A DNA stretch of 59,287 bases, counting the filler, from Platydemus manokwari (taxonomy: Eukaryota), in the NCBI GenBank assembly GCA_037951405.1. It is 5 parts of 5 records of this genome, joined end to end, with 100 filler letters (N's around TTAATTAATTAA, not from the genome) between each part and the next. Parts side by side here need not be neighbours in the genome. Positions count along the whole stretch, not along the records: positions 1 to 21,332 come from JBBMOY011366981.1; 4 more parts are not named here. One strand, given 5' to 3'. The notes beneath the pieces are model-generated. The model was given only the letters and a program-made list of their open reading frames with translations. It did not search any database and was not told where the DNA came from. Within the stretch, counting starts at the first letter, position 1. Every line of letters begins with the position of its first letter. A program made the translations under genes and the position numbers. This document shows, piece by piece, positions 4,116 through 47,512 of the stretch.

Positions 4116-5109
4116 ACTAATTCGAGCAATGTCAAACCAATGGATATTAATTTTCATTTCTAACTTAAATTTTCTCTATCACTTTCTTATTTCTTTTGAA
4201 TTGAAATGAATCATTGAAGATTTCTTTATTAGATCATTAAAATATTGGTCATTTGTAATGGATAATGCTCTTATTTATCGTTAGTTTCCTGTCTAAATTT
4301 GGCCATTAAATATAGTTTTTTCTGCAGGTTTATCTGAAACACTTTATCACGTAATAAATATAAACTATTTCGGAATGTGCACAACGATTCATTTCCATAA
4401 AAAAGTTTTTGAATGAACAATTATTAATAATTTTGAAGAAATCGACGTTTTAAGATCATTCCATCCATCAGCCAACGGATGCTTATAATAGTATGTTATC
4501 AAATAAAACTATCGAAAAGATTATTATAATATGCAGTATGTTAAAATAGTAAATCAACACATCAAATTTGTCCCTGAAAAATATTTCATTACGGCTCAGA
4601 TTGAATTGTAATTAATAATGTTGCCACCAAAATTCTGAATAACTAAGTAGTTGTTAAGGTCTAAAACGATTATATATTATGGTCAATGAATTCAGAATTA
4701 TACGACATGTTTTTGAAAATAAGGATTATTGAGATAAAACGATTAATAACGTATGTCTTTATTAATAATTTATTACCGATTTCACATTGCCGCAAATTTA
4801 AACACTATACAGGTTGGTATGGGCAAAAATTGAGTTAAATTAAATTAAATTTGCTATTGATGATAAATTTCTCAGAATAAATTAATTCAGAATAAATCTT
4901 TTAGTCTTTGCTAATTGGAAATACCTTTTATTAATATGATTTAATATCTTAGTTAATTTGGGGTAATTTATTATTATTAAATTTTATATATTTTAATTTA
5001 TTAAAGACTGTAAGCATATATTTAATTATATTTTTATATTATTATGTTAAATTGATAAAAATTAAATATAAATAAATAAATATAAATATAAACTAAACTT
5101 ATTACACCA

Positions 5110-5700
5110 AAAAAATAATAAAATACAAAACAATAATTATAACAATATACGTTAAGGACCCTTTATTGGATTGCTACAAAATAAAAAGATGTATTAGATG
5201 ATAAACAAAAAGTTTTTATTCTAAATATTGTCACTTGTAGAGCTTGAAATTTGATTGTGGAATTTCATTTCTTCATTAATGTTCTGCATTGATATTACCT
5301 AAATTTTCAATATTTTTGAATGAAAAGTTTGTTACAAAATATTGCTGAAATTGATAACCTTTATACTGTTTTTAAATGAGTAATTTTATAAGTTTCACTT
5401 ACATATTTACTCTTTTTCGATTTAATTGATGATTCATATCCAGATGTTAGATTTGTTTTTTTCTTGTCATTCTCTTATTTTTCATTTCTGATAATTTTGA
5501 AAGACGGTAAAACACTTTTTCTAAACCTTCGATGAATTAATGTCAAAAATAATTTTCTAGTGAAATTTAATTAAAAACATTGCTAGTGGATTAAACAATC
5601 AACTTGAATCATGCATAAAAACAACCGAATCCGCATGTTTGCTGAGTTCTAATTTCTTTTAGCAAATATATGTTTGAGATTTTCACAGAATTAAGTTGAC
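5110..5700 (-). repeat. Repeat family A, copy 3 (inverted, long)
   Basis: Reverse complement aligns with ~12720-13280 (e.g. 'aacaaccgaatccgcat' vs 'atgcggattcagttgtt'; 'tttctgataattttgaaagacgg' vs 'ccgtcattgaaaattgtcagaaa'). Confidence 0.85.
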
Positions 5701-5879
5701 CACTTTCCTAATATAAAGCCCATTAAATAATTTAATATTATATAAAAATGTAAAAAGCTTCACGAATTCGGATCTGACGTGTTTTTATAAGATCCATGCA
5801 ATCAAAATCATAATGTTTCTAATACTGTCATTTGCTTATTGGACTAAGGTAATACGGGTAGTGACCCTTTAAGCTAAAA

Positions 5880-8215: not shown

Positions 8216-8498
8216 AATTTATAAAAAGTCCAGTTTTTCAAATACCTACTTCAGCATCCGAAAACTGGCCAATTCTTCAAACATGTTAAGACAACTCAAA
8301 ATACATTAAATAATTATCTGATCAGTAAATACTTGTAATCAATATAATTTTCCTTTTATCCAGATTTCCAAGTTAAAAATTGATCAGAAACATAATGATC
8401 TGGATCAAATTTTTTATACTTATATAACTATTCCTATTGCATCAGCTAAAATATTTACATCTTTCTTTAAACATAATATATATGAATGTGAAAATAGA

Positions 8499-8749
8499 AG
8501 AGAACAAACGCAAATAAATAAACAGAGTTTACATAATTTAATGAATGAATGGACTCTGACCATTGCAAATCAATATGACTATGCATACAAAAATAATAAA
8601 GAAGTTGAAGTTACTAATCAAAGTGATAAATATTCACGAAGGTTTGATAATATGTATCCAGAGGATCAATTTGCAAGTGATATTATGAGAATATGTTATT
8701 CTAATAGAAAATACTAATTTGATAAATTTTAATTATAATGCTGTTATGG
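8499..8749 (+). repeat. Recent ~250-bp duplication (family C), copy 1
   Basis: Near-identical to 15907-16157. Reads EQTQINKQSLHNLMNEWTLTIANQYDYAYKNNKEVEV... Confidence 0.9.
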
Positions 8750-8774
8750 AAGAACGAATAAAATGGTAAAATTT

Positions 8775-9030
8775 TAACAAAATGTTTTCTATAAAGTCAA
8801 AATCTTATCGTTAGTGTCTATACAATGGCAAAACCGAAATTAAAAATAAAGGGATTAAAATCAATAAAGAAATGAATATGGATTTATTTAAAAAAAATTA
8901 TTTTATAATAAAAAAGATGATAGAGATGTAGTGTGTTACATATATATTGTTAAAATACTATACATTTGTAAAACTTTTTGAGTTAATAAATATTAATATT
9001 CTACAATTCTCTTTCGCAAAGCATCACGAG
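8775..9030 (+). pseudogene. Probable C-terminal remnant of protein-primed family-B DNA polymerase (Polinton/adintovirus)
   Basis: KMFSIKSKSYR*CLYNGKTEIKNKGIKINKEMNMDLFKK resembles the pPolB 'F....pKxY.....gk...K.KG' motif. Confidence 0.45.
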
Positions 9031-9959: not shown

Positions 9960-11400
9960 AGTTAATGATTTGTTAATTTATCTTAATATTCTTGCTACTG
10001 GACTCATTTCTATTTGTTCTCCTTGAATTATCAACTTTAAATTACTTCTCTCATAGTACCCAATGTTTATGAGTTTTTATTACTTTCATATGTTCTATCA
10101 TCCGCTGATTCCCAAGTTTGTTGATTTCTAATATTCGATTTTCTTATTATCTATACTATGCAAGATCAATCATCTTTACCAAAAGATCTTTGTCCATTAT
10201 TGCCATTCTACCATATCTAGGCAAAGCTACCAAAGTGATCATTATTATTTATAATCTTGAAATTTCTCTCATATTAATGAAAATTATTCCGTACACTATT
10301 TTTATTATTTGCTGTTATTATCGCTATTATGTCGGTGTAATCATCGATGATTCGATGCATTATCAAGATTGATTGTGATTTTTTACAATTATATTCTTCT
10401 ATTTCTCCATTTACTCGCCTTATAATCCTATTAGGTAGGTTATTAATAATGCTTGCAATATTATTATAAACTTAGAATCTTATAAGACTTTCATGTTATA
10501 ATTGTGCTTTTACTTAGGTAATACTTGCGCTATTTCTTTTTGCACAATTATTTTATTGACTGGACTTTCTAAAAATTGTAGTGTTGCTGACGGTTCACCG
10601 AGTATCTTTTCATCTTCGTTTATAATATTAATTACTTCTATTGCGCTCTCTTACTAGATATTTTTTTTCTTCTTTATTTGTTTTAATCCTAGTTTTATCA
10701 GTACAATGATCTATTGCTTGTCTATACATTCTCTTATTTTTTTCTACAACGTTGATTTTGGCATTAAGTGCTTGTAAATAAATTTTCTCATCTATTTTAT
10801 TTTTGTGATTGAATTCTCTTATTGTCTGTGCATGTATTTGATTTTTCTCTAATACGCGGATTTCGTCATTAAGTGCTTGTGTTTTTTGTTTAATCCTACA
10901 TTCTGGTTCATCTAGACTGTCTTCATGTCTTTCTCTGCTTTCACAATTACTCAAGTTTATCATCAGCTGTTCTTCATCTTCCATTCTTATTCCACAAAGC
11001 TATACTGGGTATGTGATCACATCTATTGTGTTTAGCGCATCTATCCTCTTCTTTCATCAATATCCGTTTACAATAAAGTGCGATGTTTGTTGATTTTCAC
11101 TCTATTTTATGAACAAATTGCTCTGCCATTTCCCTTATTAATTTTTTCGTTCTCAACTATTTATATCCTGTTCTATATTTTACTATTTTCTCTGTGTATC
11201 GATCGATAGTCATTAATTTCCAATTATATGACACACTGTCTTTCATTGCTGATCAAATCTATAGTTATTTCATTTCGTCTGAATTTCATCAAATTATAAT
11301 GCTTGAATTGGTTTTCATTATTCAATATTATCAACACTCAATCTATTTTGTTTTCTCATTTATGATAGGTTTTCCTCGGATAATTTCCTGGCCTACTCTT
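9960..11400 (-). mobile_element. Decayed coding tract, probably retroelement-derived (coiled-coil ORF 10628-10984)
   Basis: Strong purine bias on the minus strand, similar to the Gypsy at 45.3-49 kb. Interrupted E/K/R-rich frames; no diagnostic motif. Confidence 0.35.
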
Positions 11401-11419
11401 TCACCTTACTACATATTTA

Positions 11420-11800
11420 TCTGAAGATCTTCTGCATTGTGAACATCAAGACTGATTTAGAGATCTTTTGAATAAATTGTGATGAGTGCAATGTCATCAT
11501 ATGCAATAACCCTGATTTTGTGTTTAATAGTTGATAATACCGGACGCTAACAACTTCAATGGTTGCAAGGACCGGGTTAATGACTTGAGGGAATAAGAGC
11601 ATTGACAGTGAACATCCTTGCGTTACTCCGAAATTAAGTAGATATACGTTAGATTACATTCAGAAGGGCGTTGTGCTTAATGCAGCACTTATATTTTATT
11701 CCGACTTTTTGTCCAAAGCTTAGAATTTGACTATCCACTGTAGCAATCGATCCTCTGGTATTATAATGAATAGTTTGTAACTGGAATGGGGTAGAGCAAT
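11420..11800 (-). mobile_element. Non-LTR retrotransposon reverse transcriptase remnant
   Basis: Minus strand reads LNFGVTQGCSLSMLLFPQVINPVL, then after a frameshift IRVIAYDDIALI. These are the GVxQGxxLSPxLF and degenerate YADD motifs. Confidence 0.75.
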
Positions 11801-12479: not shown

Positions 12480-13300
12480 TTCTGCAATTCCGTTAATATA
12501 CCTGTGAGCAGCAAGCAAATTTCTGAAAACAACAAAGTTGAATTGAGGAGCGTTAGTTCATTAATAATGAAACAAAGAATGCAGTCCACAAACTCAATTC
12601 CCCTTCCATAAAACAATTAGAAAGTCTGTTTACTACGAATAATATATAACATACTATTATATCGTGAAAGTGCTCAACTGAATTCTGTGAAAGTCTCAAA
12701 CAAATATTTGCTTATATAAACCGCTGGAATTAGTTTTTAGCCAAGATGCGGATTCAGTTGTTTAATTTATAATGTATAATTTATTTATAATTGAATTTCA
12801 TGCTTTGATCCAGTAACATGATTTTTAAATAAAATTTAGGAACTAATATTTGGCATTAATTTATTTAGCTCAAAATTGCTTTCTGAGCGAACGTTTAAAC
12901 AAAGTGTCAAACCGTCATTGAAAATTGTCAGAAATAACGAATACGAGAATGAGAAAAAACGAACGTAATATCTGGAAGTAGAACATAACTCAATTCGAAA
13001 AACGTAAATTTGAGAGTGAAAATTATAAAAATCTTATCTTAAAACAGTATGAAACTTACCAATTACAGCAATACTTTGTAATAAGTTTTTCGTTCAAAAA
13101 TATAGAATCTTTACCTATGTCAAAGCAGAACTGTAATGAAGAACTTGACTTCCACAATCAAAATTCAAAACTCTACAAGTTACAATATTTAGAATAAACA
13201 CTTTGTTTATAAGTTATTACGCCTTTTTATTTTGTAACTTTCAATAAAGAATCATTTATGTATCAATTATTGTTTTGTATTTTATTTAATGCATTTTATT
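12480..13300 (+). repeat. Repeat family A, longest copy
   Basis: Spans the segments matched by the copies at 520, 1860, 5110 and 7610. Confidence 0.8.
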
Positions 13301-13346
13301 GTTATTTTATGAAGAAGTTTAAAGAACTTAAATTTTTAAATCAAAA

Positions 13347-13800
13347 ATGGGAACTTTTGACACAAACCAAATAGAAGAATTAAAAAAGATTGTTTCTTTG
13401 AAAAATAAAATAAATACTGAGGCCGAAGGAACCAATATTCTAAAATTTTATTAAATCAGGGTATTGCCGAATTTGCTAAACCTTTGTTAGCACTCATTGT
13501 ACAAAATCAAGAAAACAACAATTAGCAATTGAAGAGTGAAATACAAATATCAAAGTCATTGAAGGAAAATATATAAAAGACAACGAGGTAAAACCAGGGA
13601 GGTATATTGAACCATAAATATTTGATCAAAATACTGATGAATTATCCGCGCCCAGTATTATCCACACATTAGAAAAAAAAATTTAAATAAAGATTTTCTA
13701 ATTTTAAAATTTTAAAATACAGAATTTTCGATTACAGAATCCGATAATAAAAATAATTTTAAATATTCCAGTAGTGGAACTAACTTTGAGATTACCATTA
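13347..13800 (+). pseudogene. Decayed Polinton/adintovirus-like gene upstream of the capsid (paralog of 30830-31150)
   Basis: MGTFDTNQIEELKKIVSLKNKIN...IAEFAKPLL. DNA/peptide similarity to 30920-31130 ('gaggtaaaacc.g...tatattgaac'; FKI.N.E..IT.S.dKN.F......FEIT). Confidence 0.55.
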
Positions 13801-13854
13801 AAAAGAAGATTTATATATCATTAATATTTTATCAACAACAGCACCAAATTTAAA

Positions 13855-14545
13855 TAAACATATTGATATTATTTATGAATTTCAACAAACTTCAGATCCT
13901 GTAGATATTTGTAATAGTTTCTTAAGATATGAAAATGAAATTGAATTAAAAATGACAAAATACTGCTGGTGTAGAAAAAGACGATAATGTAACTTTTTTT
14001 CGTGATTTATTTAATTCTGTGAGATTAACATTAAGAACACACGAATTTGAAAATATTATAAGATCCATCTGTTGAAAGAATTCGAGAGTTGACATCATGG
14101 ATTCCAGATAAAACTATTGAACATCCAAAAAGGACAATAAATCATTCAGAAGAAAAGCCTTTTATAATTCAAAAAGCATGTTCAAAGCAAGATTTCCATT
14201 AAAACACATTTGAATTTTTAGAAAGATTGGCCATTTTTTTGATGATGATTAAATTAACCTTAAACAGAAATACAGATGATAAGAAAATATTTTACGGAAC
14301 AAAAGGAGAAGGAAAATTAAATACCAAATCATCATTGTTGTATCCTCGAATTAACTCTAAATTCAGAGAATGAACTCAAACTCAAAGAATGAATACAAAC
14401 TGATAAACCAATTCAAGTTAATTATTTAAATAGGCTTTCAAATCTAATTTATATTTCTGAGTGACAAACTTTCACATGGCAAGTAACTTTATTAAAGAAT
14501 AGACCAAGATATATTATAATTGTTTTCAAAGATGTACAATAAAAG
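13855..14545 (+). pseudogene. Polinton/Maverick-adintovirus major capsid protein (double jelly-roll), frameshifted
   Basis: Ordered motifs: YEFQQTSDPVDICNSFLRYE / LFNSVRLTL...FENI / SWIPDKT / SFRRKAFYN / FKARFPLKHI / IKLTLNRNTDDKKIF / PELTLNSENELKL / PIQVNYLNR / FTWQVTLLKNRPRYIIIVFK. Confidence 0.8.
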
Positions 14546-14719
14546 TATGAAATAGTTGATCCTATGATGTCATTTCAGATTCATAAGAATAATTTAATAA
14601 CTTTATTGTCTGCTAATCTCGAAATTTGTTTATCTCGTTTGATGGACGGATTCAGATCCTGTGTGTCACAGGTTTTATAAATAATTTGTAATTTTTATCA
14701 TTGTAAATTTAGTATGCGT

Positions 14720-15240
14720 ATCAGGAAAGTTAGGCGCACGATTTTGGTCGATAGTAACACATTGCCTTCAAGAAAATATTAATGATAATGAAGAATTAAT
14801 TCTCACAAATGAAGAGGTAAAACATTCGATTCAAAAGTTATTTGTTTTTTATTATTATTATTTAACTCACAATTGAGTTGGAAAATATTAAAACTTGGCT
14901 TAATAAATGTCGATTTTCCGATCCCCGGTGCATGAACTTTATATGAAGTTCGGAAATCACACTCAACCAATAGCAGAGATATATGGGCAATTATTGGAAT
15001 CCCTGGTTTTCAAGTTAAACAGATCAGCTTCAGAAAATGTCACAAAAGGTACTTACTGAGTCACGTCACATTTTTATGGTCTAATAATTTTTAAATACTT
15101 TCTAATTTAACTCAGGCTTGTTCCAATTAGTGCAAAAATATATTATGATGATAATTATATATTTATTAAAATGTGGAGCAATGTTGCTATTTTGATCAAC
15201 TCTTTGATCTTATGGAATCCTATAATTGTATTGATTAGTA
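14720..15240 (+). pseudogene. Possible spliced host-gene fragment, unknown product
   Basis: Open frame MSIFRSPVHELYMKFGNHTQPIAEIYGQLLESLVFKLNRSASENVTK ends at AG|GTACT. A ~67-nt intron runs to CTCAG and the next exon ends at |GTAAGT, but the frame is disrupted. Confidence 0.3.
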
Positions 15241-15906
15241 AGTATTTCATTGTTTCCAGTTTTTTTTAACGGATAATATATCAATTTAATTATGTTTCAA
15301 AACACGGGATAAAAATATCTAAATTCTAATAAGAACTCAGATAACTTTGATTGGACCACATTATTCTTTACCTATGTCATTATTCTTTGTCTATCATTCT
15401 TGATGAAATAATAAGATAGTGAGTAATACGAAAATCAATATTGGGAATTATTTTATATAGTAGTAATATTAGAAATTATGATAAATAAAATCATAATAAA
15501 TAAATCCGTGTAGAAAAATTATAATATATATATAAATGTGTGCGAAATTAAAATTAATAATGTAGGTGGATTTATTATTATTATTAGAGCAGAAAAAATA
15601 TTTTTATAATCCAATAGGGAAAAAGAAAATAATAAAATTCATTGAATTTATCAATATAACTTTTAATATATGCGTAATTTCATATTCACGGTATTCTTCA
15701 TAGAAATTTTAAAATACAATAGTTTTTGCAATATATTTGTAATTGTAAAATAGTTTAAATAATGATTTTAAATTAGAGTTTCTTAAAAAATTTTTGCCGA
15801 TCAATGGTCAACAGAATTACTTAATCTACTTTGCAAAGGAGACAAAAGTATCTCTCAATTAGCCGGTAATATCATTTCATTACACAAAAATGAATGAAAA
15901 AATGGA

Positions 15907-16157
15907 AGAGAACAAACCCAAATAAATAAACAGAGTTTACATAATTTAATGAATGGATGGACTCCGACCATTAAAAATCAATAGGACTATGCATACAAAA
16001 ATAATAAAGAAGTAGAAGTTGCTAATCAGAGTGATAAATTTTCACGAATATTTGATAATATGTATCAAGAGGATCAATGTGCAAGGGATATTATGAGAAT
16101 ATGTTATTCTAATAGAAAGTACTGATTTGATAAATTTTAATTATAATGTTGTTTTGG
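15907..16157 (+). repeat. Family C duplication, copy 2
   Basis: Near-identical to 8499-8749. Confidence 0.9.
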
Positions 16158-16736
16158 TAGACCGACAAAAAGAAATAATGAAGATCAGTTGAGGAAAACG
16201 GTCGATTAAAATCAGAACGATCCAATCGTATCTATCACGAAAAGATGATGGCAAAAAAATAAATTGAAGTTAGAAATTTCATTCACACAAAAATCATAAC
16301 GATATCGAGTATTATTTAAGGCAATCAAGTGACAACCAAAATCCTGTTAGGCTAAAGGAAAATCTAGCTGAAATTAAAAATATTCCGGCTGGTGAGAGAA
16401 TTTCATTGAACCACAAAAATGTTGGCAAATTTGCCAATATTCAAAAATGAAGAACAAAATATAATCTTAATTTTTAAAATTAAATTTAATAATTTACAAA
16501 AAATATTTTTAATTGATTTTACTAAAAATACTTAATGTTTATCTTATTCAAACAATTATTGTAACCTCTCAAAATTTAAAAAATTAATTTATTTAAAAAA
16601 GGAAATTAAAATGTGTTGAAAATAATTTTATATTAATTATTAAAGAAGGAATATTTGTTTAGATAATCTGTAATATGAAATATATTTTTACACGTTGAGA
16701 ATTATAAGTTTTGAATATAGTATAAAAATGAAGAGG

Positions 16737-18830
16737 TGTTAGCAGCTAACATGGCGACCACGCACGTGGATGCGATCCTAAGGCTCGATGTTGCCAGACA
16801 GATTCAAACTGGGGGATAACGCCGAACACTTTATTAAAAAATGTAATCGATAATTAGAGGCTGGGAAAATCCCAAAGCATGTCCAATACGCTATCGTAGT
16901 AGCAAGATTAGACGATTGCTTAGTAGAGCAATTTGAGACGAGGACGCCAAAATGGAGTAAGAGGACAGACTGAAGAAGGCGTTTGACCAAAAGAAGTCAT
17001 TCGCTCAGGATTGGATGGAGGCCCTAAGGTTCAGAAGGAAGGCCGCTTCGGCGGACGTATATTTTTAAAAAGTAGATAAACTGGTGGAAGACATATTGTC
17101 TCACAATATAACTAAAGAGAAGTTAACTGTTTTCCTCTTGGTGCATTGTGCAGATGATATGTAGCTTGAGAAAGAAATTAAATTTAGGGATATTGTGGAA
17201 GTGGATCAAATAAAGAAAACCGTAAAAATGCTAGATAAAGTAAGAAATAAAGAAAGAGAAATAAATACGGTGGAAGCCGGAGAATGGACCACGATAGTCA
17301 GAGCACAACCAAAACCCAGGGCTCCCGAAAGAAAAGTAGATAATAGGACGTGCTATAATTGCCAAAAACCAGGCCATATAACACGAAATTGTAAAATCGA
17401 GAAAGTAGTGACGTGCTACGCCTGCCACCGAGTAGGTCACATAGCGAGAAATTGCACAAATGTCATAAAGTGCCGTAGATGTCAATACAGAGGACATCAC
17501 GTGAGTGAATATTACACAAACATAGAGAGAATGAGACAACAAAGGTCCAACTACAAGCAAGAAACATCAATAATCCAGCGAAGGTTTGAACACAGACAGA
17601 GTAATAATAGAATAAACAAAAATAGACAGGATTTCAAAGGACAAAATTACAGAATGGTGAACCGAAATAATAGGTAAGTAGCGGCGGTCGAACAAGAATC
17701 GGATTCAGAATACAACGAAGAATACCCAAAAGAGAACTCGCCGATTTCAGGATAGTGAGTCAGGGCAATACACTAAACAATAAATCTCAGTCTGAGCAAG
17801 ATAACGAGAGTATCAGTAGTCATATTGATATTTATAATATAACTAATTTAAATAAAATAAACTAAATAAAAACTAAAATAAACAAGCAAGGCAGTACCCA
17901 GAACATAAAAACTGGAAAGTAGAAAAACAAATTGTAACCGGTAAAAACGATGATATAGAATCAGGAAAGAGAGTACAATGGAAAGTTGTAAAATTTATAA
18001 GGAAGATGATTGACAAGGTGATAGAAGAACAAAGAGATGAGAAAATAGTAAGAATATTAACGATCAAGGAGTTAAAGTTTCTCCATATTTCTTATGATAA
18101 AATGAAAGGGAGACCGAGCATAACTATTAAAATAGAGAATAAAGAATTTGAATGCTTGTTAGGCACGGGCGCAAGAGGAAATATCATGGATAAGACGGTA
18201 TTAGAGAAACTCGAACAAGTATAAATAGAATATACAAGTATAAGTTTACGCCGTGCCAAAGACAGTAGATTAGAGGTTGTTGGTAGGATAAGAATAAAAG
18301 TCAAGTTAGGAAGTCAGTTCAAGACGATATCATTCATAATAATTGAGCACATGAAACGGAAGATTATAGGCGGAATAGAGTTTCAAGAAGAATTTGGATT
18401 AGAGTTAGAATGGAAAAAGAACTCTCAGAAAAAAGAAACAGAACTAAACACCTCTATCTATGAGATAACAGCGAGATTTGGTAGGGATATAACCAATGAA
18501 GACAGATTCAAGAAAACAAAAGAATGTCTTGCGGTGAAAGAAGGATCTCGTTTATGGGGAATATTAAAGGCGAATAGTGATGTATTCATGGCAGATCACT
18601 GGGACATCGGTAGACTTGGGAAATGCATATTATCAGGTAGAGCTTGACAAAGAATCACAAGAAAAAACAGCATTCTGGACGAAAGAGAAGAAATACTGTT
18701 TTACACGGATGCCGTTTGGGATCGCAGCAGCACCAGGAACATTTCAAGAATTGATGACAAAAATATTATGGGATAAGAGAGAAAAAGGAGCCATGGTATA
18801 TTTGGACGACATATATACTTATATTACACA
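16737..18830 (+). mobile_element. Ty3/Gypsy LTR retrotransposon, decayed and 3'-truncated (LTR end, PBS, gag, protease, partial RT)
   Basis: ...CA|TGGCGACC PBS. Gag has CYNCQKPGHITRNC, CYACHRVGHIARNC and a third knuckle. Protease is CLLGTGA (LLDTGA with D lost). RT reads DLGNAYYQV...RMPFGIAAAPGTFQ...VYLDDI. Confidence 0.95.
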
Positions 18831-18871
18831 GAAACAATTATGTATCTAAAAATGAATACAATAAGCCCTGT

Positions 18872-19261
18872 GTGAATGAATTGATTGAGAAAGAAAAACC
18901 CCAAGATATTGATTTGTTCAAACCAGGATGGAGTTCGTGGACAGGTCCAGGATATGAGGATGCGGATAAGAAGAGGAAAATGAAATTTAAAATCAAAGCT
19001 TCGACACTAAAACGCAAAGATATGAAACCACAAGTTTGGATCAAAAAAGGTGTGAATGATGAATTGAACAAACATTTGATCAAAAAGATTCCATTTCCAT
19101 ATAATACTGTCGAACAGTTTAACTTGTCGAGGAAGGAACTCGTAAGTAGAACTTTCAATCTCGCCACTGTCCATCGAGAACTTGTCAAGCCGAGATTTAT
19201 TAATAAGGCTGGTCAACCGATTTATCCCATTCACAAATACGAGAAAAAGAAAATGAAATAA
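18872..19261 (+). pseudogene. UTP14: UTP14 (U3 snoRNP/SSU processome protein) C-terminal fragment
   Basis: EKPQDIDLFKPGWSSWTGPG...RKD..PQVWI...IPFPY...QF...KPRFINKAGQPIYPI matches the conserved Utp14 C-terminus. No upstream exons or clear acceptor are visible. Confidence 0.85.
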
Positions 19262-19968: not shown

Positions 19969-21170
19969 CTATGTGATATTCTTTATCAAATAACAGAGAA
20001 AAGATGCTATAAAATAGATATGGCGAATATAGGTCTTTAAGGAGAATTTGATATGAAAATAGAGACAAAACTGAGAAAATCAAAGATTTCAAAGAAAAGA
20101 AGTGGGAGAACATTTTAATACTTTTATAAATATTTTGTAGTTATTCTAAATAATAAAACAAATTAAAGATACTTTTAAATAATTTGGTTGAATATACTTT
20201 TTTTGGTTGAAAATTCTACTGATTCGTTTCGAATCCAATTTTACGAAAAAGCAGCAGCTAACATATTTATAGCATTTCTAAAATCCAATTCCCCTTTATA
20301 GTTATATTAAGAGATATAATAATGAATATAAATTATAATTAATAAATCTGATAACTTTTGATACATATAAATATTACGAGAAGTTTTGAAATGTTATTCA
20401 ATCGAGTTTCTTATCCATTTTAAGCTATTTATCACTTAGAAGATGAATACAATTATTATTAACAAGTTTATTTCAAATTTTATTTATATATTTGATTGGT
20501 CAAAAATATTCGACAAATAACTCACTTTCAGATCAAGCGAAGCATTGATTTCGAGAATTTTATCCAGAAGCCATAGAAATGATTGATCGGAATACCAGTT
20601 CTGCTGATCAATGATTGAATGTATGAAGAATTTGACCAAAGTTTCTTGTCGATCTTTATCACTATTAAGCATGACTAGAGATGAACAGAAAGAATTTCCA
20701 ATGCAAGTCAATACAGGTCCAGGAAACTGTTTTGTGATGAGACTTTTCACCATGTTATAATACGTATCATCAGCGTGGATAATTTGCTTTAAAATCGCAA
20801 CAAAAATATCGTTGCCAAGCAACAATGTCAATCGAGTTGTTGGTGAACTAATGATGATCTGGTATAGCAATTCTAAAGAAAGTCGATATTGCTGGTGACG
20901 TGAAACCAGATTTTGAATTATCTTTAGCATATTGTTGTCCACGGACTGATTATCTTGCCAAGTGGTAACAGCCATGTACATAGCAATCGGATGATTGCAG
21001 CGGTCTTGTTGAGCGTCGGATAGTGCTTGAATCCAGTCCGATGTATTCAAAACGGAAGATGGTTGCAAAAACATAGCATCGTTTACTTTGTAGCGTGTAG
21101 AAGGATGTAAGCGCAATCGAATGCAAAGACTCAAACACCACGCATGAAATGATTGGTCTTGAAAAGTGTC
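19969..21170 (-). CDS. EPG5: EPG5 (autophagy tether)-like internal exon 20526-21170, plus a possible further exon ~19969-20120; partial gene
   Basis: A 645-nt open exon bounded by TTTTCAG| and |GTGAGT. FHAWCLSLCIRLRLH and FFIHSIIDQQNWYSDQSFLWLLDKI resemble EPG5 'WAWNLILRLKLH' and 'FW.QAL....WY..Q.ILFLMD' as recalled. Confidence 0.6.
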
Positions 21171-21255
21171 CTGAAAAATAATGATTCATTTTAATCAAAC
21201 ATTTGTAAAGATTGAAAAGCAGAAATATGTAAAATTTTTTGAGCTTTTAGGTCAC

Positions 21256-21332
<77 letters not shown>
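21256..21332 (+). repeat. (AAT)n microsatellite at contig end
   Basis: Directly visible. Confidence 0.98.
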
Positions 21333-21432
21333 NNNNNNNNNNNNNNNNNNNNNNNNNNNNNNNNNNNNNNNNNNNNTTAATTAATTAANNNNNNNNNNNN
21401 NNNNNNNNNNNNNNNNNNNNNNNNNNNNNNNN
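21333..21432. other. Artificial contig linker N44-TTAATTAATTAA-N44
   Basis: Identical 100-nt spacer with six-frame stops, found four times. Confidence 0.98.
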
Positions 21433-21459
21433 TTATTATTATTATTATTATTATTATTA

Positions 21460-21509
<50 letters not shown>
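21433..21509 (+). repeat. (TTA)n microsatellite at contig start
   Basis: Directly visible. Confidence 0.98.
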
Positions 21510-21511
<2 letters not shown>

Positions 21512-22016
21512 AGTTTAAAATATTACCAGATGATTTCAAGTCAAGGACCAACCACACTTGTTTTAGTCACAATGCTCACAATAGGAAAAATATAAAAAAT
21601 CTGTATCTGGTTATTATATTATGGTTGAGAAAAATTACTGCCTGAGTTATTCACTCAGTGATAAATATAAGACTCAAACGAGATGAACTCGCATAAAATA
21701 TTTGGAAATTATGAATAGAATTGACCCATTTGTCAAAAGATACTTTCAAGTAAAGATTATAACTAGATTTGTGCAAGCTCCGATGACACCGCTCAAAGTA
21801 TCACAATCAAATCACATTCAATAAGTCATTCCTCATTCTGATGTCATAATGACAAGGCGATAATTGTCAGATAATAATTATATCATGTTGTATAGTTTGT
21901 GATACGTTTGTGAGTGACATTCAAATCAGGTGTCAAAACTCATTGACAGCACCAAAGAATTCTCATAATTTTTTTATGTTTTTCGAAAGAGATTTATAAA
22001 TCAATTTATTTGAACA

Positions 22017-23396
22017 GTCAAAATAACACCAACAATATTGATATCTGATCTAATTATTAGTTCAATAACAGTTCACATCATGATGAACTAATCAAATTCG
22101 ATATACATGTTCACCTATATTCTTTATTTTGCAATCTTTTTCCAAGTCGTTCAGGGTGATTGGTTGAAGAGATCTATTGAGAATATCCAGTCGACAATCT
22201 TTATTTGTTAGATTCTTTTTATTTCCACAAATCTTTATTTTGAAATTGTAAGGATCGGAATTGGTCTCGTTTCTGAACAATAAACGTACATAGAATTGCA
22301 ACAGTGGATTATTATCAACGATTACCGAGCTAGAATCGTAATATAACTCTGTAATAACCGAGCTTGCCAATGGAGGATATATTTGATTGAAGCATTTTAA
22401 ATGAGAGAGAAAAGCTGCTATTGTGTCATCATGTGCAAAATATCCAATCAGCTTATATCCGGATTTGTTCGAACGAAATGATTTTGCTCTTGCTATCATA
22501 TCATTCACCATTTTTCTGATGAGAGGACCACCTCGAAACTTTGTGAGTTTGGTATTCGAAAAAGAGATAATCTAGTAATAAACGATCATTTGTTTGCAGT
22601 TTTTTATTATGTCTGTTTTCACCCATTTAGGAAGTTTGAGTTTCCTATACTTCCAGATGAGAACATGATCACAAATATTCCAGGCCATACGAATGTCGAC
22701 ATTTGAAGTATCTAAAATATCAATATTATTCCATTCAATCGAAACTACCAACATCTGAGATAAATATTTCTCATCTCGAAATGATACAAGAATGAGAAAT
22801 AGTTAAATGAGATGTAACGATTTCAAATACGCGCACTTGTTGCTTTCTCCAATACTTTGAAAAATGATGAATACCGACGGATGATGGATTGATATTTCTT
22901 CGATTCGAATTCTCTTAATAACAACATTTCGATAACAGGACAGTGACTCGTCATGTTTAAGAGGAAATCATAGAATGTTGGAACAATGTGGATTGGTACG
23001 AATTGATTTTCGAATAGAGTACTCATACTAGCAAGGCCACTCATAATTGTTCTATCAGTATCTGTAGACCTGATGTAAACAGTATCCTACAATTGCAAAT
23101 GATTGATATCAGACAATGATGATAAAACAAATATGAATTACTGGATGAAAGACCAATGGGATCGAATCTCTATATTGCTTTCTCAGATAAGTTCCGAACT
23201 CTTTCATTTCCCAAATACCTTTGTCTGTCAATTGACCGTAACCTTGTGTCCATAAATATCGATATGGATCAGATGGTAAATCCCAGAACGGGGTTCGATC
23301 CCCATGTCTCGTTAATGTTTGGATTTGAATCAATTCTCGACAACAATGCAGTCCAAATGAAATAAATATCACAAATAAACATTTGATTACACGCAT
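22017..23396 (-). CDS. Histidine acid phosphatase (lysosomal/prostatic ACP type), multi-exon, with in-frame TAG at 22572-22574
   Basis: Signal peptide, RHGDRTP motif, GQLT..G, YIRSTDTDRTIMS, LPKW, RGGPL and catalytic AHD. Exon 1 is 23142-23396, intron 23087-23141; a second intron lies at ~22712-22836 and a possible last intron at ~22051-22113. Confidence 0.9.
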
Positions 23397-24134
23397 TTGG
23401 TTATTAAATATTATAAAAAATAATGAATTGTTCTCTCATACAGAATTTTATAATAATAAGTAAATGTTTTTTATTGGATCTCAAATCAAGATTTGATTGA
23501 ATTAGGTTTTATGGCAGTGTAGTTGTGAGTTAGGAAATAAATGCGTGCTTTGTACTAAAAGCCATTTAGAATAATTATCATTATTATTAATATTATTTTT
23601 TTTATTAATATTATGATTATTCCTATTATTTTTTAAATTGTTATCAACATCCACATAATTTTTAATAATTTATCATTGCTATTACTCTGATTGTAAAAAA
23701 CATAATTATTAATATAATATTTATGTTTTATAATTATCGGCTCATATTATATTGGTTTATAATTATTTTATTTAATTTGGTTGACTTGACAACGTGGGGA
23801 TCTTCATTGGCCTGTATGATGACGAAACTATTGGAATTCTCAAATTTAAATCTAAAAGTTTCATTTTAAAGTTGAATTTGTTTGATTGTCGATTTTTGTT
23901 TCGGTCGATTTATCAAAACCAACAATCGTATTAATTGTGGTAAGATGATGTGTTAGTTTCGCCTCCGAAGGCATAATCATTGAATTATATCTGATAACTG
24001 TCAGTCAACTATTGTGAATGTTTATCATTGATCATCCCAATTAATATCACAACTCAAGTCAGTCTATAAGTAATATATAAGAATGAAAAACAAATGGGAC
24101 ACGAAAAAGATAAGAAAAATTTGGTAAATTAAAC

Positions 24135-24975
24135 AATGCGTTACCAATACCTCTGACGTGTTACCATTGGCTGAGTTCTTTCTGTTCTTGTTCGAAATTC
24201 TTGTTCCAAATTGGTGTAACATTATTTTTCGTGTTGCCCTCGATATTGACATTTTTTACACCTGATTATATTGGCGAAATTTCTGGCTATGTAGGCCCTT
24301 TCATGGCAAGTATAACACCTTACAACCTTCGGAGTATTACAGTTTCGAGCTCTATGACCTTGTTGTTTGCAGTTGATGGAAGTCTTGGTTTTCATTTTTC
24401 TTAAATGCTCCTTTGGCTAATGATTTGTTTTTTCGTCTTGTTATCTAATCATCCGATGTAAGAGGATTCACATTTTTTACTTCCAGAACTTCAATTTGGC
24501 TTTTTATTACCTTTTAAAACTTCGGTAATTGAACAATGTCCTGCATTTTTATCTCTCTCCAAATCCTCAGCCTCTGAACAATGAACTACCAGGAATACGA
24601 CCAGATCTTCTTACATTGTTTCTCCACAATCTTTTCAATTTTATCAAAATAAAACATAGGCAGATTCGGACTCCCTTCGGTACTGGAGGTCTCTCAACCA
24701 ATTTTGAGCCAATGATCTTTTTTGAAACCAGACCTTTAGCAGTCTTTGATTATAATCCTTAATTTCATCTGGAACTGTATCGTATTGAGAGATCGCGCTC
24801 TGATATAATAAGGAAATTACAACCAGATTCCTCATTGATTTGGTTTCTTTGAAAATATCAAAGTATCGATTACAGCTTTTAATAAACTGAACGACATGTT
24901 TCTACTCGTCTGTGTTTTTCAGGCACAGGTCTGCTCAAAATCGCATCCATGTGCGCGGTTGCCATGTTATAAGCT
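24135..24975 (-). mobile_element. Gypsy LTR end/PBS/gag remnant, same family as 16737-17740
   Basis: TATAACA|TGGCAACCGCGCACATGGATGCG vs GCTAACA|TGGCGACCACGCACGTGGATGCG. Shares FIK.CNR, FLVVHC and CKQQGHRARNC/CYTCHE knuckles. Confidence 0.88.
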
Positions 24976-27189
24976 ATCTTCCTCGTTTAAATTCAATTTA
25001 ATTTTAAATTTTTTAGTAATTCAATATCATTTCAAAATATTTTTTTAATTCTTGAAATTATTATTAAATCATTAAAATTATTATTAAATTATTTTTATTT
25101 AATTATTATTGAATATATTTCCTTCGCAATTATCATTATTTTTTATTATTATAACTAATATAATTATTAGCATTATTATTTCTGTTAATAATTATACAAT
25201 TATTACCATTATGTCATTGTTATAATAAATATAATCATCAATATCATTATAAAAATTTATGTAATTCAATAAATATTTATTGATAATCAATATTCTTTAT
25301 TTGTTATATTTTAAATCGAATATTTGATTTGGCCATTTTCATTTATTCGAGTATCGATTCTTATAAGATGAGTTGAAATATTCTCAAATCTAAGATGAGT
25401 GGAGATGCCAAATAATTCCCATGTATTCTCAGATGGCATAATGATCGAGATATTGGAAACATTATTGATAAATATTATCACATAATTTAATTATTTATTA
25501 GTAAATTAATATTCCAACCAGATGAATTTCATCAAACTGTAAAAACTATGGGTTTAAAGATTAATATTTTCTTCTTCATCCAAACATTCTCCAAACCGAC
25601 TTTCTTTCCTGGAATATTGTCAAAATATCGATTATTATAATTACCAATTTATATATTATTATTATTCCAATCGTCATTATTATTATCATGATTTTATGAG
25701 TCGTTTGATGCTCGCTGCCCATAGAATATGAAATGACAACACCCACACACCTCATTGATTGTTTATTCAGATATTCTTAATCAATACAAACTATTCTGTG
25801 TATCAATCAAACGAGCAGCACAAACTATTTCATTGAATAATTTTTCTAAAAATTTTATAAAGCCAATCAATATTAGCTTGTCAGTGCTGTATTGCTTTTC
25901 TTAATCATTCGGTGTAATCGATTTATTGTAGCAAATATGATTTGAATTCTTGAAATATTGATTTATCGAAATTAATCGAATATAAAACATGTCTAATTTC
26001 TCAAATTATCAAACTGCTAGATTGATGGGCTGGAAATGTTGACAATATTGATGAATGTGTGCTCATGGAGTTCCATGTTGTCGAAATATATCTCTGTAAT
26101 ATCAGACGATTAAGTAGCACATCGTTAGAATATAAAGAGATTTAATTATTTGGTTAATGCAGTGGTTTGAGGAATCATAGTGTGACTTGGTTTATGTTTT
26201 GTTTGAATTTTATACTCACTGAATTGTTGTTGAATCGATCAACGTTCTTGATATTATTGAATTGGTTGTTTGATCCATTGGTCGATGTTTCAAACAAGGC
26301 AGAGCAGTCGAATAAGAGCGATCAAATTTCGGACAATCTTAGGATTGAATGAGTCATAGTCTGTCCTTTATTCTGAAATCCGGAATAAATTGCTGGTGAA
26401 GTTTTCCAAGTTTAATTTCATTTGTTCAAGAACTCGATCAATATTCATTAAGATTTAATTTTAATAATCTATATTGAATTATATTGATTATCGTGTTATA
26501 AAATCTCAAATGTGATTAGCGATATAATGATGATCATTAGGATGATCTAGCAATTGATTTTTTATAATCAACAACCCTCGCAGGCATATTCTCAAACGCG
26601 ACACGGTTGGGCCTATACAGTGAAGCTAATTTTATGGTAGAATATTTCTGTAATCGAATTTATGACGTCATAAAAAATATTACTATGGAAATTTACTACG
26701 GAAAGAAGATAAGCATTTTTACGAATTGTCTTGGAAACAACATCAATCGATAAGTTCGAAATATTAACAACTTAGAACAAAATGCCCCTCTGTTTGCTAT
26801 AACTTTAATAATATTGATGGAACTTATATGGAAACAAAATGAAATGACATCGAGAACTCACAGCTCACTGATCACTGATGTCAGAAAATGGGAACTATTC
26901 AGAAAATATTATTGGCCAATCTATCATTCATCGATAATATGAGTTGTCAACCAAAAATTCAAGATTTTTCATTTTTCGCTTCATATTTTATGTCAACAAC
27001 AAATACAAATGAACTAAATCAATATTTGTATCATCAATGAGTCATTAGCAGCCACCACGTTGAACCACAAACATCTCGAGATGAACTGCACAAGCACACT
27101 GATAACACCATTCTAGAAATTATTATTGTATTAAAATTTATCATATTTCTGGGTCTATCTCAGCATTAGATTTATCGATCACAACCAAA

Positions 27190-28645
27190 ATGACCAATTA
27201 TGATAAAATGTGGGAAATTTTGGAACAATATCATTTTGAAGTGGAACCTAACCTAACCGTTGTTGTGCGCTGCACTTTCTGTAAGAATTTATTGATCGAT
27301 GCTTGTCAAGGACCCTGTGGTTGTCTTTATTGTTGCCATTGTATAGAGAAATATTTGGAGAGTGGTGAAAAGTGCTGTCCTGGAACCAATCTTGCTTGTG
27401 ACTCAATTAGGCTGGATATGGAAACCAATATTACAAGGGATAACAATATAAACCATAAAATATCCCAATTGCAGACAAAATGTCCGTCCGAATCGTGTAA
27501 TTTTGTTAACAACTTAATTGAGGTTTGCAATCATTTGCAGATATGTGAGAAAGTACCCACGTTTTGTCCCTATCGATCAATGGGGTGCCTTATGAAACCG
27601 ATGCTCATTGATAAATTGGCTGAGCATTTGCAGATTGAGATCTATTCGCACAACAAGTTATTGGTCAAATGGATAACGAGAATGCAAAGCCATACTTCGT
27701 CATCAAATGACGAACAAATCGACAAATCGATGGAAAGTCAATTGGAGAGTTTGTTTGAGAAACTATCAATAGTTCTTTCCAAGAAGCAAGTACCATATTA
27801 ATTATTAATTGAATTTCATTACACTCCGTGTTCAGCTGCTTTTCAAGAATATATTGAATGAGATGGAAGAATTGAAAACGAAAACTTTTGAATTTGCTGG
27901 AATGACCAAATCGCTAAAAGAAATCAATGAAAGACAAAGCAGTGAAATTGCTCTGATGAAAGAAAACAATAACAAGAAAGTCGATCAATTTCATCGGGAA
28001 ACGCACATGGGAATCAAGAATTTGAAACAACAGTTGAAAGATCATGAAGCAAGTATGAAGAAAAGAGAGGTAAATTTTATCAGTAAACTCCGTTAATGGG
28101 AAACTCCATATATTTTGTAGACCGAAATGTTGAATTTGAAGCTCAAAGTCAAGAAATTAGAGGAGAGATCAAAGAGACCGGGTCACTCTGTGAAATATTC
28201 TTTGGAGAAGATTGTTAAGATTGCTTCATTCAGATGGAGTATTGATAACGTGAAAGAAATCAGAAGTGATGGAGAAGAAATGATTTATAGCGATTTTTTT
28301 CATACAATTGACAAGGATTATCGAATGAGAATTTGGATGTATCCCAATGGGAACGGAGTTGATCTTGGTGACAACATTACCATGCAATTGCTTGTTTGGA
28401 GTAATGAGGCGGCAGCTTGTCACGGGTCATTTCCATTCAAAGCAGATGTCTCCTTGTCCATAAAGAATGCATTGAAACCCGATAAGTGTTGCTGCATCAC
28501 TCAGCTTTGTCTTTTCGAAAAGCCAAATATTTTTCTTTATAGCATTTCAGATGCCTTTCATTTTAATTATTTTCAGCTCAATCTGGCTGGAGTCTTTCAG
28601 AACAATATTGTTGTGATTGAGTGTGCTTTATGGATTTATAAATAA
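27190..28645 (+). CDS. TRAF-family protein (RING - TRAF zinc finger - coiled coil - MATH), 3 exons, ~452 aa
   Basis: Exons 27190-27789, 27836-28069 and 28121-28645 join in frame across GT-AG introns of 46 and 51 nt. MATH motifs: FRWSI, YSDFFHT, YRMRIWMYPNGNG, FPF. Confidence 0.92.
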
Positions 28646-29219
28646 ATTATCGTTTTATTGTTACCCTCATTTATTATTATTAATCTCGTTGCTATTAGTA
28701 ACTCTGTATATACATACATCTTAGTTGGAGCTTTCCGAATCACGAGATGCTTACTCCTTTAATAAAAGAAATATATGACCTTGTGATGTTTCGAGTCATT
28801 TAATTCAAATGCAACCAACAGTGCTAAAGCAAGTCAAAAATATGTTAATAAAAAGCAGGATTTCTTTTGTGAAATTAATTCCTGATTTCGACATGGTATT
28901 GGGTGATTTGTCATTCCTGAATTGTTGTTTTGATTCGAGTTACTGAGATTGGCCAATCAATTATTCATTATTGAAGTCACACAATAATCGATATGGAAAT
29001 ATCGGTAATCAATTATTTTCTTATTTTATTTACAAATCCATTGCTTAATAAAAAATCCAGTAAATGTGCAGTTCAATAAACCTTTGGGGATAATCTTGGA
29101 ATAAATATCCGAAAATTTCGATAGCTTATAATTCCAAATTTAATCTGAACTCGTCAAAATCTTTGCTTATTTTACTGTCGAACTTTTAAAAGTTTCAGTT
29201 TCAAAATCATCCTCACAAA

Positions 29220-29400
29220 CATCGTTATTTCTGCACACACATTTTATCCTTTACAGGTCGCTTTTATATGTAAGAAAATAAGCTCGATTTATATTTTCAA
29301 AGGGTTTCTCATCTTTAAATTGTAATACAAAATTTTCTTCTAATATTAATTTCACAAACGCACTATCGGTGTTTGAGTAGTGCACTTCATATTTTCTTGA
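29220..29400 (-). pseudogene. Possible decayed family-B DNA polymerase palm fragment
   Basis: KYEVHYSNTDSAFVKL resembles vIYGDTDSvFV. Downstream RIKCVCRN resembles KG..cVRRD. Confidence 0.33.
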
Positions 29401-30726: not shown

Positions 30727-30826
30727 NNNNNNNNNNNNNNNNNNNNNNNNNNNNNNNNNNNNNNNNNNNNTTAATTAATTAANNNNNNNNNNNNNNNNNN
30801 NNNNNNNNNNNNNNNNNNNNNNNNNN
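30727..30826. other. Artificial contig linker
   Basis: N44-TTAATTAATTAA-N44. Confidence 0.98.
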
Positions 30827-30829
30827 AAA

Positions 30830-31290
30830 CATTTAAAAGCTATTGAAAATAAATAGGAAAATATAAATAAAGCTATTGAATCGAGAGATATTGAATTAAT
30901 AAAACATATTTTAGAAAATGAGGTAAAACCGGAATATATTGAACACGAAACATTTCCAACGCAATTATTTGTAAAATCTATTATAGTAACGTTAGAAATA
31001 AAATAAATAAATAACAATAGTTTTGCAAATCTTTAAAATTTATAATATAGAAATTTTGATTACAAAATCAGAGGATAAAAACTACTTTGTATTTGTTGGT
31101 GATGGATTAAAATTTGAAATCACTGATGATTTATTAAACATTATTTTGGACAATTAAAACGCAAATAAAAATGAAAGTTATCGAAACTTATTTTGAAATG
31201 TTAGAAAAAACCAATCAACCTAATTTAAATACTTACAAACATGGTAAATATTTACAAATTTACAAAAGAAAAGAAAATTAAAGAAATGGA
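30830..31290 (+). pseudogene. Polinton/adintovirus-like gene, paralog of 13347-13800
   Basis: FKIYNIEILITKSEDKNYFVFVGDGLKFEITDDLLNII aligns with the segment at 13700-13795. Confidence 0.55.
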
Positions 31291-31349
31291 ACAGGTTTAC
31301 AAAGCGAAACTTATTGTTTATAAATCCATCGTTAGCAGACGAATAATCA

Positions 31350-31810: not shown

Positions 31811-31949
31811 TAATATGTAAAAATTAATTATCGTAAAATGTACGAAGTACCTTCAGGTGACTTTCGACAATGTCAAATTTGATATGTACTAAACTATTAG
31901 AAAAACTTTTAGCGGAAATTTTAAACGTAAAAATTGATATTTATCAAAA

Positions 31950-32430
31950 TGTTTAGAATACTATCAGGATTATCACCAAAAAATTCGTTATAATAAGAAA
32001 GAATATTCCTAACAATAATGGTGACAGCAAAAAGAATACAATCAAAATCATAAACAATATATTAATGATTACCAGAAACGTAGATATTAAAATTTTTATC
32101 AAGTGAGAATAAAAAGACATCTAAAAAATTCAATACGACGAGCAATAATCGAAAATATTAATTCCCAAACTTTATATAAATATTTAAGTTGTTCAATCGA
32201 TAAATTAAAGGGTTGGTTAGAATATCAGTTTGGCGAGAATGTGTCTTGGGAAAGTTATAAAAATTATTGGCATATTGATCATGTTTTACATGTAAGTAGA
32301 TTTGATTTTACAAATGAAGAATATTAGAATATGTTTTAATTGGAAAAATCAACGTTTAGTTGATAGCGAAAATTTAGTGAAAAGTGATGAAATTGATGTA
32401 GAAATGATAAATGATCGAATGATCAATTCG
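31950..32430 (+). pseudogene. HNH/endonuclease VII-like nuclease of NCLDV/phage/Polinton type
   Basis: YLSCSIDKLKGWLEYQFGENVSWESYKNYWHIDHVLHVSRFDFTNEE, then after a frameshift ICFNWKN....ENLVKSD. Confidence 0.8.
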
Positions 32431-38190: not shown

Positions 38191-39964
38191 TATATATAAT
38201 AATATTAATTTAAATTTGTACTTTTTAAATTTGTTTATTATTATGCTCTTAGTAATAATCTATACCAATCCTTGGTGCAGAAAAATATATAATCATTATA
38301 TATAACGAAAAGCATTATATATAATAGTTATTATATATTATCATTATTAAATATATCCATCATTATATATTTTCGATTAATTTTTATATTTAATTATTAT
38401 TTTTTTTATAATACTCATCTGTTCGCTTTGTTCATCACAGAATAAAAATTAAAACAAAAATTATAAAAAATCAGTTGACACTTTAAAAAATTGCTGGAAA
38501 TTTGAATAAAGGCATCAAAATAAATATTTTTAGAATTTTCTTTATATTTTATGTTTATCGATTAAATTGAAAAATAGTTAAAAATTAATTTTAAAAACGA
38601 CACGCATCTCATGCAAGCAAATATTTTTTGAAATGAATGTTTTAAAATAAAGTGTTTTTTCTCCACAGTACCATTAAAAAAATTAATTAATAAAATAGGG
38701 TTTATTTTAGATGTTAATCAATTCAGAAAATTCTAAAACACTCACAAAATTTAAGAGGATGTTAAATTTTTTCAAATTTACATGGGATTACAGAATAAAA
38801 AATTTCATTCACAAAGCATAGAAATTTATCTTTGGACTTTTATTTATCTGTGACTTTAATGGAACAAAGGAAGGGTGGATATATAAAAGAATCCTCTAAA
38901 AGATTATATTTTTCACTTATAAAATTATGAAAGAAACTGATACTAAAAATATCAAAGCAAGAAAAGATTACATTAAACATATTAGGAATACAGAAGAAAA
39001 TATAAAAATTAGAAGAAAACAACAATTGCAAAACTATGGGAACTTGGAAGTATTTTAATAATTTATAAACCATCAAAATTATAAAAGTAATTATAATGAA
39101 TTTTTGACCAGATCATCTAATATCCTTACCAAATATTTCTTAGGTTTTTATATTCATGGTGTGATTCTTGAGCTAATAAATCTTCATCTCGTAGAGGGAA
39201 GTTACCTCCGTCTCTCAAATCTGTGTTGTTGACTTGTTTATGTTTCTTCGTCTAATTTCTCAAAATTTTTCTTATTTGCGGAATCCCTAGCTTTTCTTCC
39301 AGCCTTGAAAAACTCTTGAACTTTGTTCAGTTATCTTTGATAGCTCTGACCTAAAACAATTGGATTAGAACTGGGATTTCTTCCTTTCATCTTTGTTAAA
39401 CCTTGATCTAATAGAATCTTTTCTTTCACAATACTTTAAAAAATCTTTCTAATTTTTATCTAAAAGTTGGATAAATTATTTATTTGGATACATCATGTGG
39501 CGTAGATATTTTATCAAATTCTATTTTCCTATTGATAATCTTTTGTTTGAATTAGTTGAATATCTAATTTTTCAGCTTAGTTATAATTATTAATAATTCT
39601 ATCAAAACTCTGTAGAGATTCTTGAAGAATCGTGCCCAGTTCACTAAAAAATCTACCGGAGTTTTTAATTTAAACTTTTGAAATGAAATTCTCCAAGATG
39701 ACAATAATTACTAAATTTATTTAAAAACTTATTATTGGTAACATATTGTTTCAAGTCTCTTTCCTCAAAATCAAAATATTTTAATTGAGCAGTTATATTT
39801 GCATTATCATTCGTACTATTTGTATGATATTCAAACCTTTTATGTTTGGCTTTATTAGATTTAGAAATCTCCTTATTACAAATCTCACATCAATAATACA
39901 ATTTTATAACTAAAAATTGGTGACCGTAAGAAAGGTAAATTCATTATTTTTTTGAAATCAAAGT

Positions 39965-40150
39965 AAAATAATATTTAATAATCATGAAAATATTTCTTTT
40001 TCTTCTAGAATGTTAATTGTTGGAAGTCCTGGATGTGGACAAATACAGTTACTTTTTAAAATGTTTTTAACAGCAGGATTTTTAGATTATGATAATTTAA
40101 TAATATTTTCAAAAACTGTTTATCAAGAAGAATATCAAATTTTATATCAT
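39965..40150 (+). pseudogene. A32/FtsK-like genome-packaging ATPase N-terminus (Polinton/adintovirus), cut by the contig end
   Basis: RMLIVGSPGCGQIQLLFKMFLTAGFLDYDNLIIFSKTVYQEEYQIL resembles R.LI.G.SG.GKT.LL...LDY..L..f.KsL.Q.EY. The Walker A Lys is lost. Confidence 0.8.
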
Positions 40151-40250
40151 NNNNNNNNNNNNNNNNNNNNNNNNNNNNNNNNNNNNNNNNNNNNTTAATT
40201 AATTAANNNNNNNNNNNNNNNNNNNNNNNNNNNNNNNNNNNNNNNNNNNN
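40151..40250. other. Artificial contig linker
   Basis: N44-TTAATTAATTAA-N44. Confidence 0.98.
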
Positions 40251-47473: not shown

Positions 47474-47512
47474 TTTCTGAGTTGCTTTTGGGTTTTGTCG
47501 AAGTTTATTCTT

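Follow-up and report, generated by a model that had tools for sequence, protein, structure and literature searches.

The flatworm Platydemus manokwari carries the fossil of a double-jelly-roll major capsid gene, which is very likely the remnant of a Maverick/Polinton-type integrating DNA virus (Polintoviricetes, adintovirus) whose germline copies decayed neutrally. The fossil was found in a stretch of 59,287 nt from assembly GCA_037951405.1, in the following called the window. The window has a GC content of 20-36% per kilobase and consists of five pieces (1-21332, 21433-30726, 30827-40150, 40251-49139 and 49240-59287). These are joined by artificial linkers with stops in all frames, and adjacency across the linkers is meaningless. 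An earlier note on this DNA had proposed a fossil major capsid gene of the Polinton/adintovirus type. PF21738 relatives, ordered profile matches and the double-jelly-roll fold modelled for an intact relative bear out this identification, and the fossil very probably derives from a Polintoviricetes element. It is, however, smaller and more broken than the earlier note described, and it can make no capsid protein. A summary of the main features is given in Table 1.

Table 1. Features of the window; positions count along its full length.
Feature	Position	Strand	Basis
Repeat family, four copies in both orientations, 70-81% identical	489-799, 1767-2095, 4982-5716, 12657-13309		
Candidate pPolB-like tail	8701-8931	+	motifs
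Decayed 5' part of a different gene, stopping abruptly at the capsid start	13347..13797	+	homology to second copy
Fossil double-jelly-roll major capsid gene	13798..14551	+	phmmer, PF21738 in relatives, tblastn, profiles, frameshift-aware alignment
TRAF-like gene (RING, MATH), intact, 453 codons, introns of 46 and 51 nt	27190-28645	+	Pfam
Second decayed copy of the upstream gene, piece 3	30842..31125	+	nucleotide alignment
HNH endonuclease remnant, piece 3	32040..32330	+	45 phage records, best E 1e-9
5' end of A32/FtsK-type packaging ATPase, piece 3	39947..40150	+	homolog search, PF04665
Artificial linkers (N44 + 12 nt + N44)	21333-21432, 30727-30826, 40151-40250, 49140-49239	.	identical

A full phmmer scan of 1,835,955,588 proteins with one frame of 13820-14599 as query returned 10 matches at E <= 1e-3 (best 5e-16). 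Five of these relatives contain PF21738, the double-jelly-roll family, four of them above the 27-bit cut-off and one at 26.0 bits. The other five are fragments of 45-152 aa without a PF21738 match. A profile search gave 13 matches among 7,998 candidates scored, 11 of them with PF21738. Searching the window with the relatives by tblastn resulted in four to five ordered capsid blocks distributed over all three frames. Hence the order of the capsid motifs reported earlier stands, while the count of nine came without a list. The collinear pieces end at about 14470-14530, near the motif quoted in the earlier note.

The lack of a match to double-jelly-roll profiles had been named as an argument against the capsid; the results do not bear it out. 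A profile built from 14 relatives picked out three segments of the capsid region in order, at 61.5, 29.1 and 24.0 bits; the next best value in the window was 3.0 bits and the best in 6 null windows was 7.0. With a profile of six relatives that are absent from the results of the window query, the values were 63.1, 28.2 and 23.2 bits at a null maximum of 4.8. In both cases the signal includes a frame that was never used as a query (23-24 bits vs null maxima of 4.8-7.0). The third frame was seen by tblastn, yet reaches only 1.0-1.5 bits with these two profiles. A profile of three distant relatives alone gave 9.1 bits on the fossil and is barely above its null maximum of 8.2; the connection of the fossil to the distant relatives therefore goes via an intermediate clade. 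The frameshift-aware alignment of the fossil scored 282.5, compared with at most 33.3 in 12 nulls.

The fold was evaluated in silico using the intact relative P0004, for which a model with a pLDDT of 80 and a pTM of 0.84 was obtained. It matches Vp54 of PBCV-1 (E 2.4e-14, TM about 0.6), the capsids of Sputnik and mavirus (TM about 0.5-0.6 overall) and many viral major capsids in BFVD. The likeness to Polinton-like virus and virophage capsids is at fold level only, with 8-14% identity. PF21738 fits the relatives far better than a virophage-type capsid, for which one of six shorter pieces of the capsid region gave a weak Pfam match (E 0.028). Direct Pfam scans of the fossil missed PF21738, and six whole-frame translations of the capsid region gave 0 families. 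Likewise, a word-indexed search for homologs of the last capsid segment retained none of 16 candidates, a PDB sequence search with the first alignment found 0 of 177,635, a prokaryotic genome scan with the capsid profile confirmed 0 of 9 pattern matches and a phage tblastn with the relative P0013 found no match.

The frameshift-aware alignment covers 13802-14551, which corresponds to profile positions 28-296 of 431; similarity possibly extends weakly to about 14620. Within this region there are three in-frame stops of two types (14390, 14462 and 14540), five frame changes (near 13962, 14065, 14121, 14209 and 14348) and 25 deleted profile positions. The fossil lacks the start as well as the last third of the gene (~135 codons), and when the missing third was sought with the profile throughout the window, nothing exceeded 3 bits. 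Judged from the model, the preserved part would comprise the larger portion of the first jelly roll, followed by the three strands with which the second begins. A capsid start at 13347, as given in the earlier note, is wrong. This position is the ATG of the upstream gene, and capsid similarity begins at about 13798.

The upstream gene probably belongs to the same element as the capsid. It has a second copy at 30.9-31.1 kb as noted before, with 140 of 179 aligned bases identical and an alignment score of 82 (null maximum 42 in 200 shuffles). Overall the two copies are about 70-78% identical. The second copy runs on into other sequence, and the profile search of the window detected no capsid behind it. 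By its motifs the upstream gene may be GasderminX/PZ-like. Scans for GasderminX or other families gave no library match, so that the GasderminX label of the earlier note is left unconfirmed.

That the capsid adjoins the upstream gene is correct, but "directly downstream" in the sense of a native gene order is probably the result of a deletion, as similarity drops at the junction. Comparing the upstream locus with the second copy, there are 56 matches in the 84 bases ahead of 13797 and 40 in the 84 bases past it, the latter being slightly above the 95th percentile of random pairs (median 33, 95th percentile 38, maximum 45). In all eight relatives checked the first capsid motif is found at residue 16-29, and there is no ATG within 100 bases before this motif in the fossil (13700-13800). 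A deletion that fused the upstream gene to the capsid is thus likely, and it is not proven because similarity past the junction slightly exceeds the null 95th percentile.

In a tree of 15 rows, only 3 of which are outgroup rows, the fossil falls inside a separate close clade (SH-aLRT 99.2, bootstrap 99), its position within the clade being weakly supported. The same clade contains the intact capsids P0003, P0004 and P0010-P0014 (from ENA, JGI and Logan). Unlike the truncated fossil these are full length (422-448 aa), and they are 35-39% identical to it over about 230-236 residues. This figure is somewhat raised since the rows built the profile, and the 30-42% found for the 11 close-clade rows are inflated for the same reason. 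Identity to the three distant rows is 21-26%, and single capsid pieces reach 55-64% identity to relatives. The six intact relatives with contig data are located on contigs of 2.0-9.2 kb, the close relatives overall on contigs of 0.5-9.2 kb. The close clade has PF21738 in common with P0017, P0018 and P0020, and its match to P0017 has an E-value of 3e-33. P0017 and P0018 look like classical group 1 Maverick hexons, and Maverick Group I is presumably nearest to the fossil capsid. The nearest Atlas clusters of P0013 (score 0.97-0.98) are double-jelly-roll or unnamed and eukaryote-associated. Preplasmiviricota, Arthropoda or Nematoda are commonest among these neighbours, labels which do not give a host range.

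The capsid branch is divergent and may be unnamed. Capsid groupings are set out in PMC10120064 and 10.64898/2026.10.13.758929, and no paper naming this clade was found by text in the literature, although supplements or Repbase may hold it. Whether the fossil is the first link of an undescribed, deep-branching Polintoviricetes capsid lineage to an animal germline is a tentative and rather unlikely reading. If true, that lineage, to date represented by nothing but nameless genes on short contigs, would be placed beyond the Group I/II and Alpha/Beta clusters known so far, and viruses of this kind may still circulate intact in the host group.

The 5' end of the packaging ATPase on piece 3 is a real remnant, as the earlier note had held. 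Two of nine candidate homologs were retained, both with PF04665 (E 7.5e-24 and 2.3e-19), and the 64-residue query is 80% and 69% identical to them. The remnant is interrupted by an early stop, its Walker A motif is damaged, and the sequence breaks off where the piece ends. The relative with 80% identity suggests that close kin may still exist. No significant second ATPase copy was found in the window. A possible piece at 883-1011 was not accepted (E 0.003 with P0021, E 4.2 with P0022), and of 18 in a prokaryotic genome scan for the ATPase one was left, on a Bacillota contig (24% match), which was taken as unrelated. Head to head with the ATPase, at about 39100-39900 (-), there is a decayed zinc-finger frame for which Pfam gave only zf_UBZ (E 0.11). 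To judge by its motifs, this frame may mark the beginning of a pPolB gene.

The HNH remnant is likewise supported by the phage records listed in Table 1, several of which are annotated as HNH endonuclease; family-library scans of it were blank. From its position it would be part of the same element as the second copy of the upstream gene. The pPolB-like tail reported at 8775 could not be confirmed, as Pfam, PHROGs and phage tblastn were blank. It fits motifs that we presume to be those of pPolB (8.7-8.9 kb). Short decayed pieces are often missed by such scans, the true ATPase piece among them. The candidate tail lies after a repeat of 282 nt (8482-8763), which recurs at 15890-16171 with 91% identity.

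The selected stretches that were scanned held no integrase tied to the capsid locus. Their sole rve match, at 47.5-48.6 kb, is in an LTR-retrotransposon-like context and on another piece than the capsid. Cysteine protease and single-jelly-roll penton gave no match in these stretches, scanned without sensitive family profiles. On piece 1, neither terminal inverted repeats nor a target-site duplication tied to the capsid locus were found; the nine pairs that bracket the capsid there (13-17 nt, E 0.09-5.6) are at chance level. The ends of the element are probably lost. Terminal repeats are also absent in 2,166 of 3,511 vertebrate Maverick loci (PMC8097293).

The earlier note had combined the capsid with the ATPase and the HNH remnant. 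Each of them is real, but nothing ties the ATPase and the HNH remnant to the capsid. The capsid is on piece 1, while the second copy of the upstream gene, the HNH remnant and the ATPase are on piece 3, and with linkers between these pieces they are unlinked to the capsid. A single element comprising capsid, ATPase and HNH was therefore rejected, with linkers and a host gene in between. Between the second copy and the ATPase on piece 3 there are a host gene and a remnant of mariner type, which makes at least two and probably three insertions in the window.

The fossil resembles Mavericks in several ways. Its relatives carry the double-jelly-roll PF21738 capsid, an A32 ATPase is present in the same genome, though on another piece, and the host is an animal. 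The Maverick capsid PY has been reported with a fold like that of PBCV-1 Vp54 (PMC4028283), as is the case for the P0004 model. Its degraded state is also like that of 96% of the 3,511 vertebrate Maverick loci (PMC8097293). In contrast to Mavericks, the capsid locus yielded no pPolB, integrase or protease and no terminal repeats. Furthermore, PW and penton precede the capsid in vertebrate Mavericks (PMC8097293), whereas the gene before the fossil capsid is not recognisably either of the two. A beta adintovirus relic on human chromosome 7 (PMC8502044) is likewise a pseudogene of the hexon, damaged by nonsense mutations and frameshifts. Both loci are beside a possible GasderminX-like remnant, a label that for the present locus is putative. 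Assignment to the beta class depends on the PolB type (OTU-PolB) and on hexon/penton clusters, with the Terrapene hexon as reference; GasderminX and Cupiennin are its accessory genes.

As is established for the family, the ancestor had a linear genome that was packaged into an icosahedral capsid by the A32 ATPase, replicated by a protein-primed PolB and integrated by an rve integrase. Of this gene set, no more than the capsid and the ATPase, the latter on a different piece, are seen. We suggest that germline integration of a Maverick/Polinton-type virus in this AT-rich animal gave rise to several copies, which would then have decayed neutrally. The region 13.3-14.6 kb, with two thirds of a capsid gene behind half of another gene, would be the surviving scrap of one of them. 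An internal deletion may have fused the upstream gene with the capsid, and a later deletion or insertion may have taken the capsid 3' third. The capsid's own piece holds retrotransposon remnants, and animal genes are found intact elsewhere in the window.

The claim that the genome was "colonised repeatedly" goes beyond the two or three insertions observed. These can be explained by the spread and decay of one family, because the other repeats in the window are 70-81% identical, as would be expected if a single expansion had been followed by neutral decay. That related viruses invaded several times independently, which would be compatible with the identity of the fossil, appears somewhat doubtful. 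In its favour, identity between the copies of the upstream gene is no higher than about 70-78%, and the ATPase is 78-80% identical to its nearest relative vs 55-64% for the capsid pieces, which could mean different ages. ATPases may, however, simply be more conserved than capsids, and one capsid and one ATPase copy in the window allow no tree of copies. The fragmented, AT-rich assembly with homopolymers near some of the breaks would also be in line with an intact or recoded viral gene affected by assembly errors, or with free viral DNA co-sequenced with the host. Both appear extremely unlikely, as the locus has three in-frame stops belonging to two types, has lost 25 profile positions and both ends, and shares its piece with retrotransposon remnants. 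Host genes in the window are moreover intact, namely an open frame of 578 codons and a spliced gene of 453.

An origin from another Polinton-like group (gossevirus-, PaM1- or aquintovirus-type) instead of a true Maverick is improbable as well. It would agree with the mere 21-26% identity of the capsid clade to the three distant relatives, with an HNH gene of phage relationship beside the second copy of the upstream gene and with the high mosaicism described for Polinton-like viruses (10.64898/2026.10.13.758929). Yet the clade shares PF21738 with P0017, P0018 and P0020, the first of these at the E-value given above, and Maverick-type capsids have been reported almost only from animals (PMC10120064), to which the present host belongs. 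A decayed germline copy of a Maverick/Polinton-type virus remains the best explanation of the locus.

A lone fossil of this kind is of minor importance. That Polintons carry capsid genes has been established since 2014, with full-length capsids in 46 of 72 Polintons, split ones in 13 and capsid-bearing elements listed for Schmidtea mediterranea, Hydra and Nematostella (PMC4028283). Decayed copies are the rule. Degraded adintoviruses are found in many animal germlines (PMC8502044), Mavericks are expanded in Dugesia (10.64898/2025.12.11.693146), and coral genomes contain hundreds to thousands each (PMC11131425). The fossil rather serves as a marker, as it documents a divergent capsid clade in the genome of an animal and singles out an assembly in which a search for intact elements would be worthwhile. 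If the clade is unnamed, it would broaden what is known of the diversity and hosts of Polintoviricetes in an invertebrate group and provide hosts for orphan capsids.

The surroundings of the locus contain further genes and repeats. Besides the TRAF-like gene, the window carries an acid phosphatase and the glycerol-3-phosphate dehydrogenase frame of 578 codons (Pfam), as well as LTR-retrotransposon and mariner-type remnants. The TRAF-like gene scores 0.93-0.95 with cnidarian, arthropod, rotifer and chordate clusters alike in the Atlas, which does not settle the host lineage; with about even odds it resembles planarian genes. One copy of the four-copy repeat family ends about 40 bases before the upstream gene, and Pfam was blank for this copy. 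The regions at about 11300-11700 (-) and 14750-15050 (+) are possible non-LTR retrotransposon remnants flanking the capsid locus; Pfam was blank here too, and a LINE directly behind the capsid is our guess from a motif. An open frame of 233 codons at 20487-21185 (-) without a Pfam match is probably a host exon. Opposed AAT and TTA microsatellites at 21256-21509 mimic a 127-nt palindrome across the linker, which is a joining artefact. At 18568-19258 (+) a reverse transcriptase fragment is directly followed by the C-terminal part of host Utp14 (PF04615, E 1.6e-22), a retrotransposon abutting or carrying a piece of a host gene.
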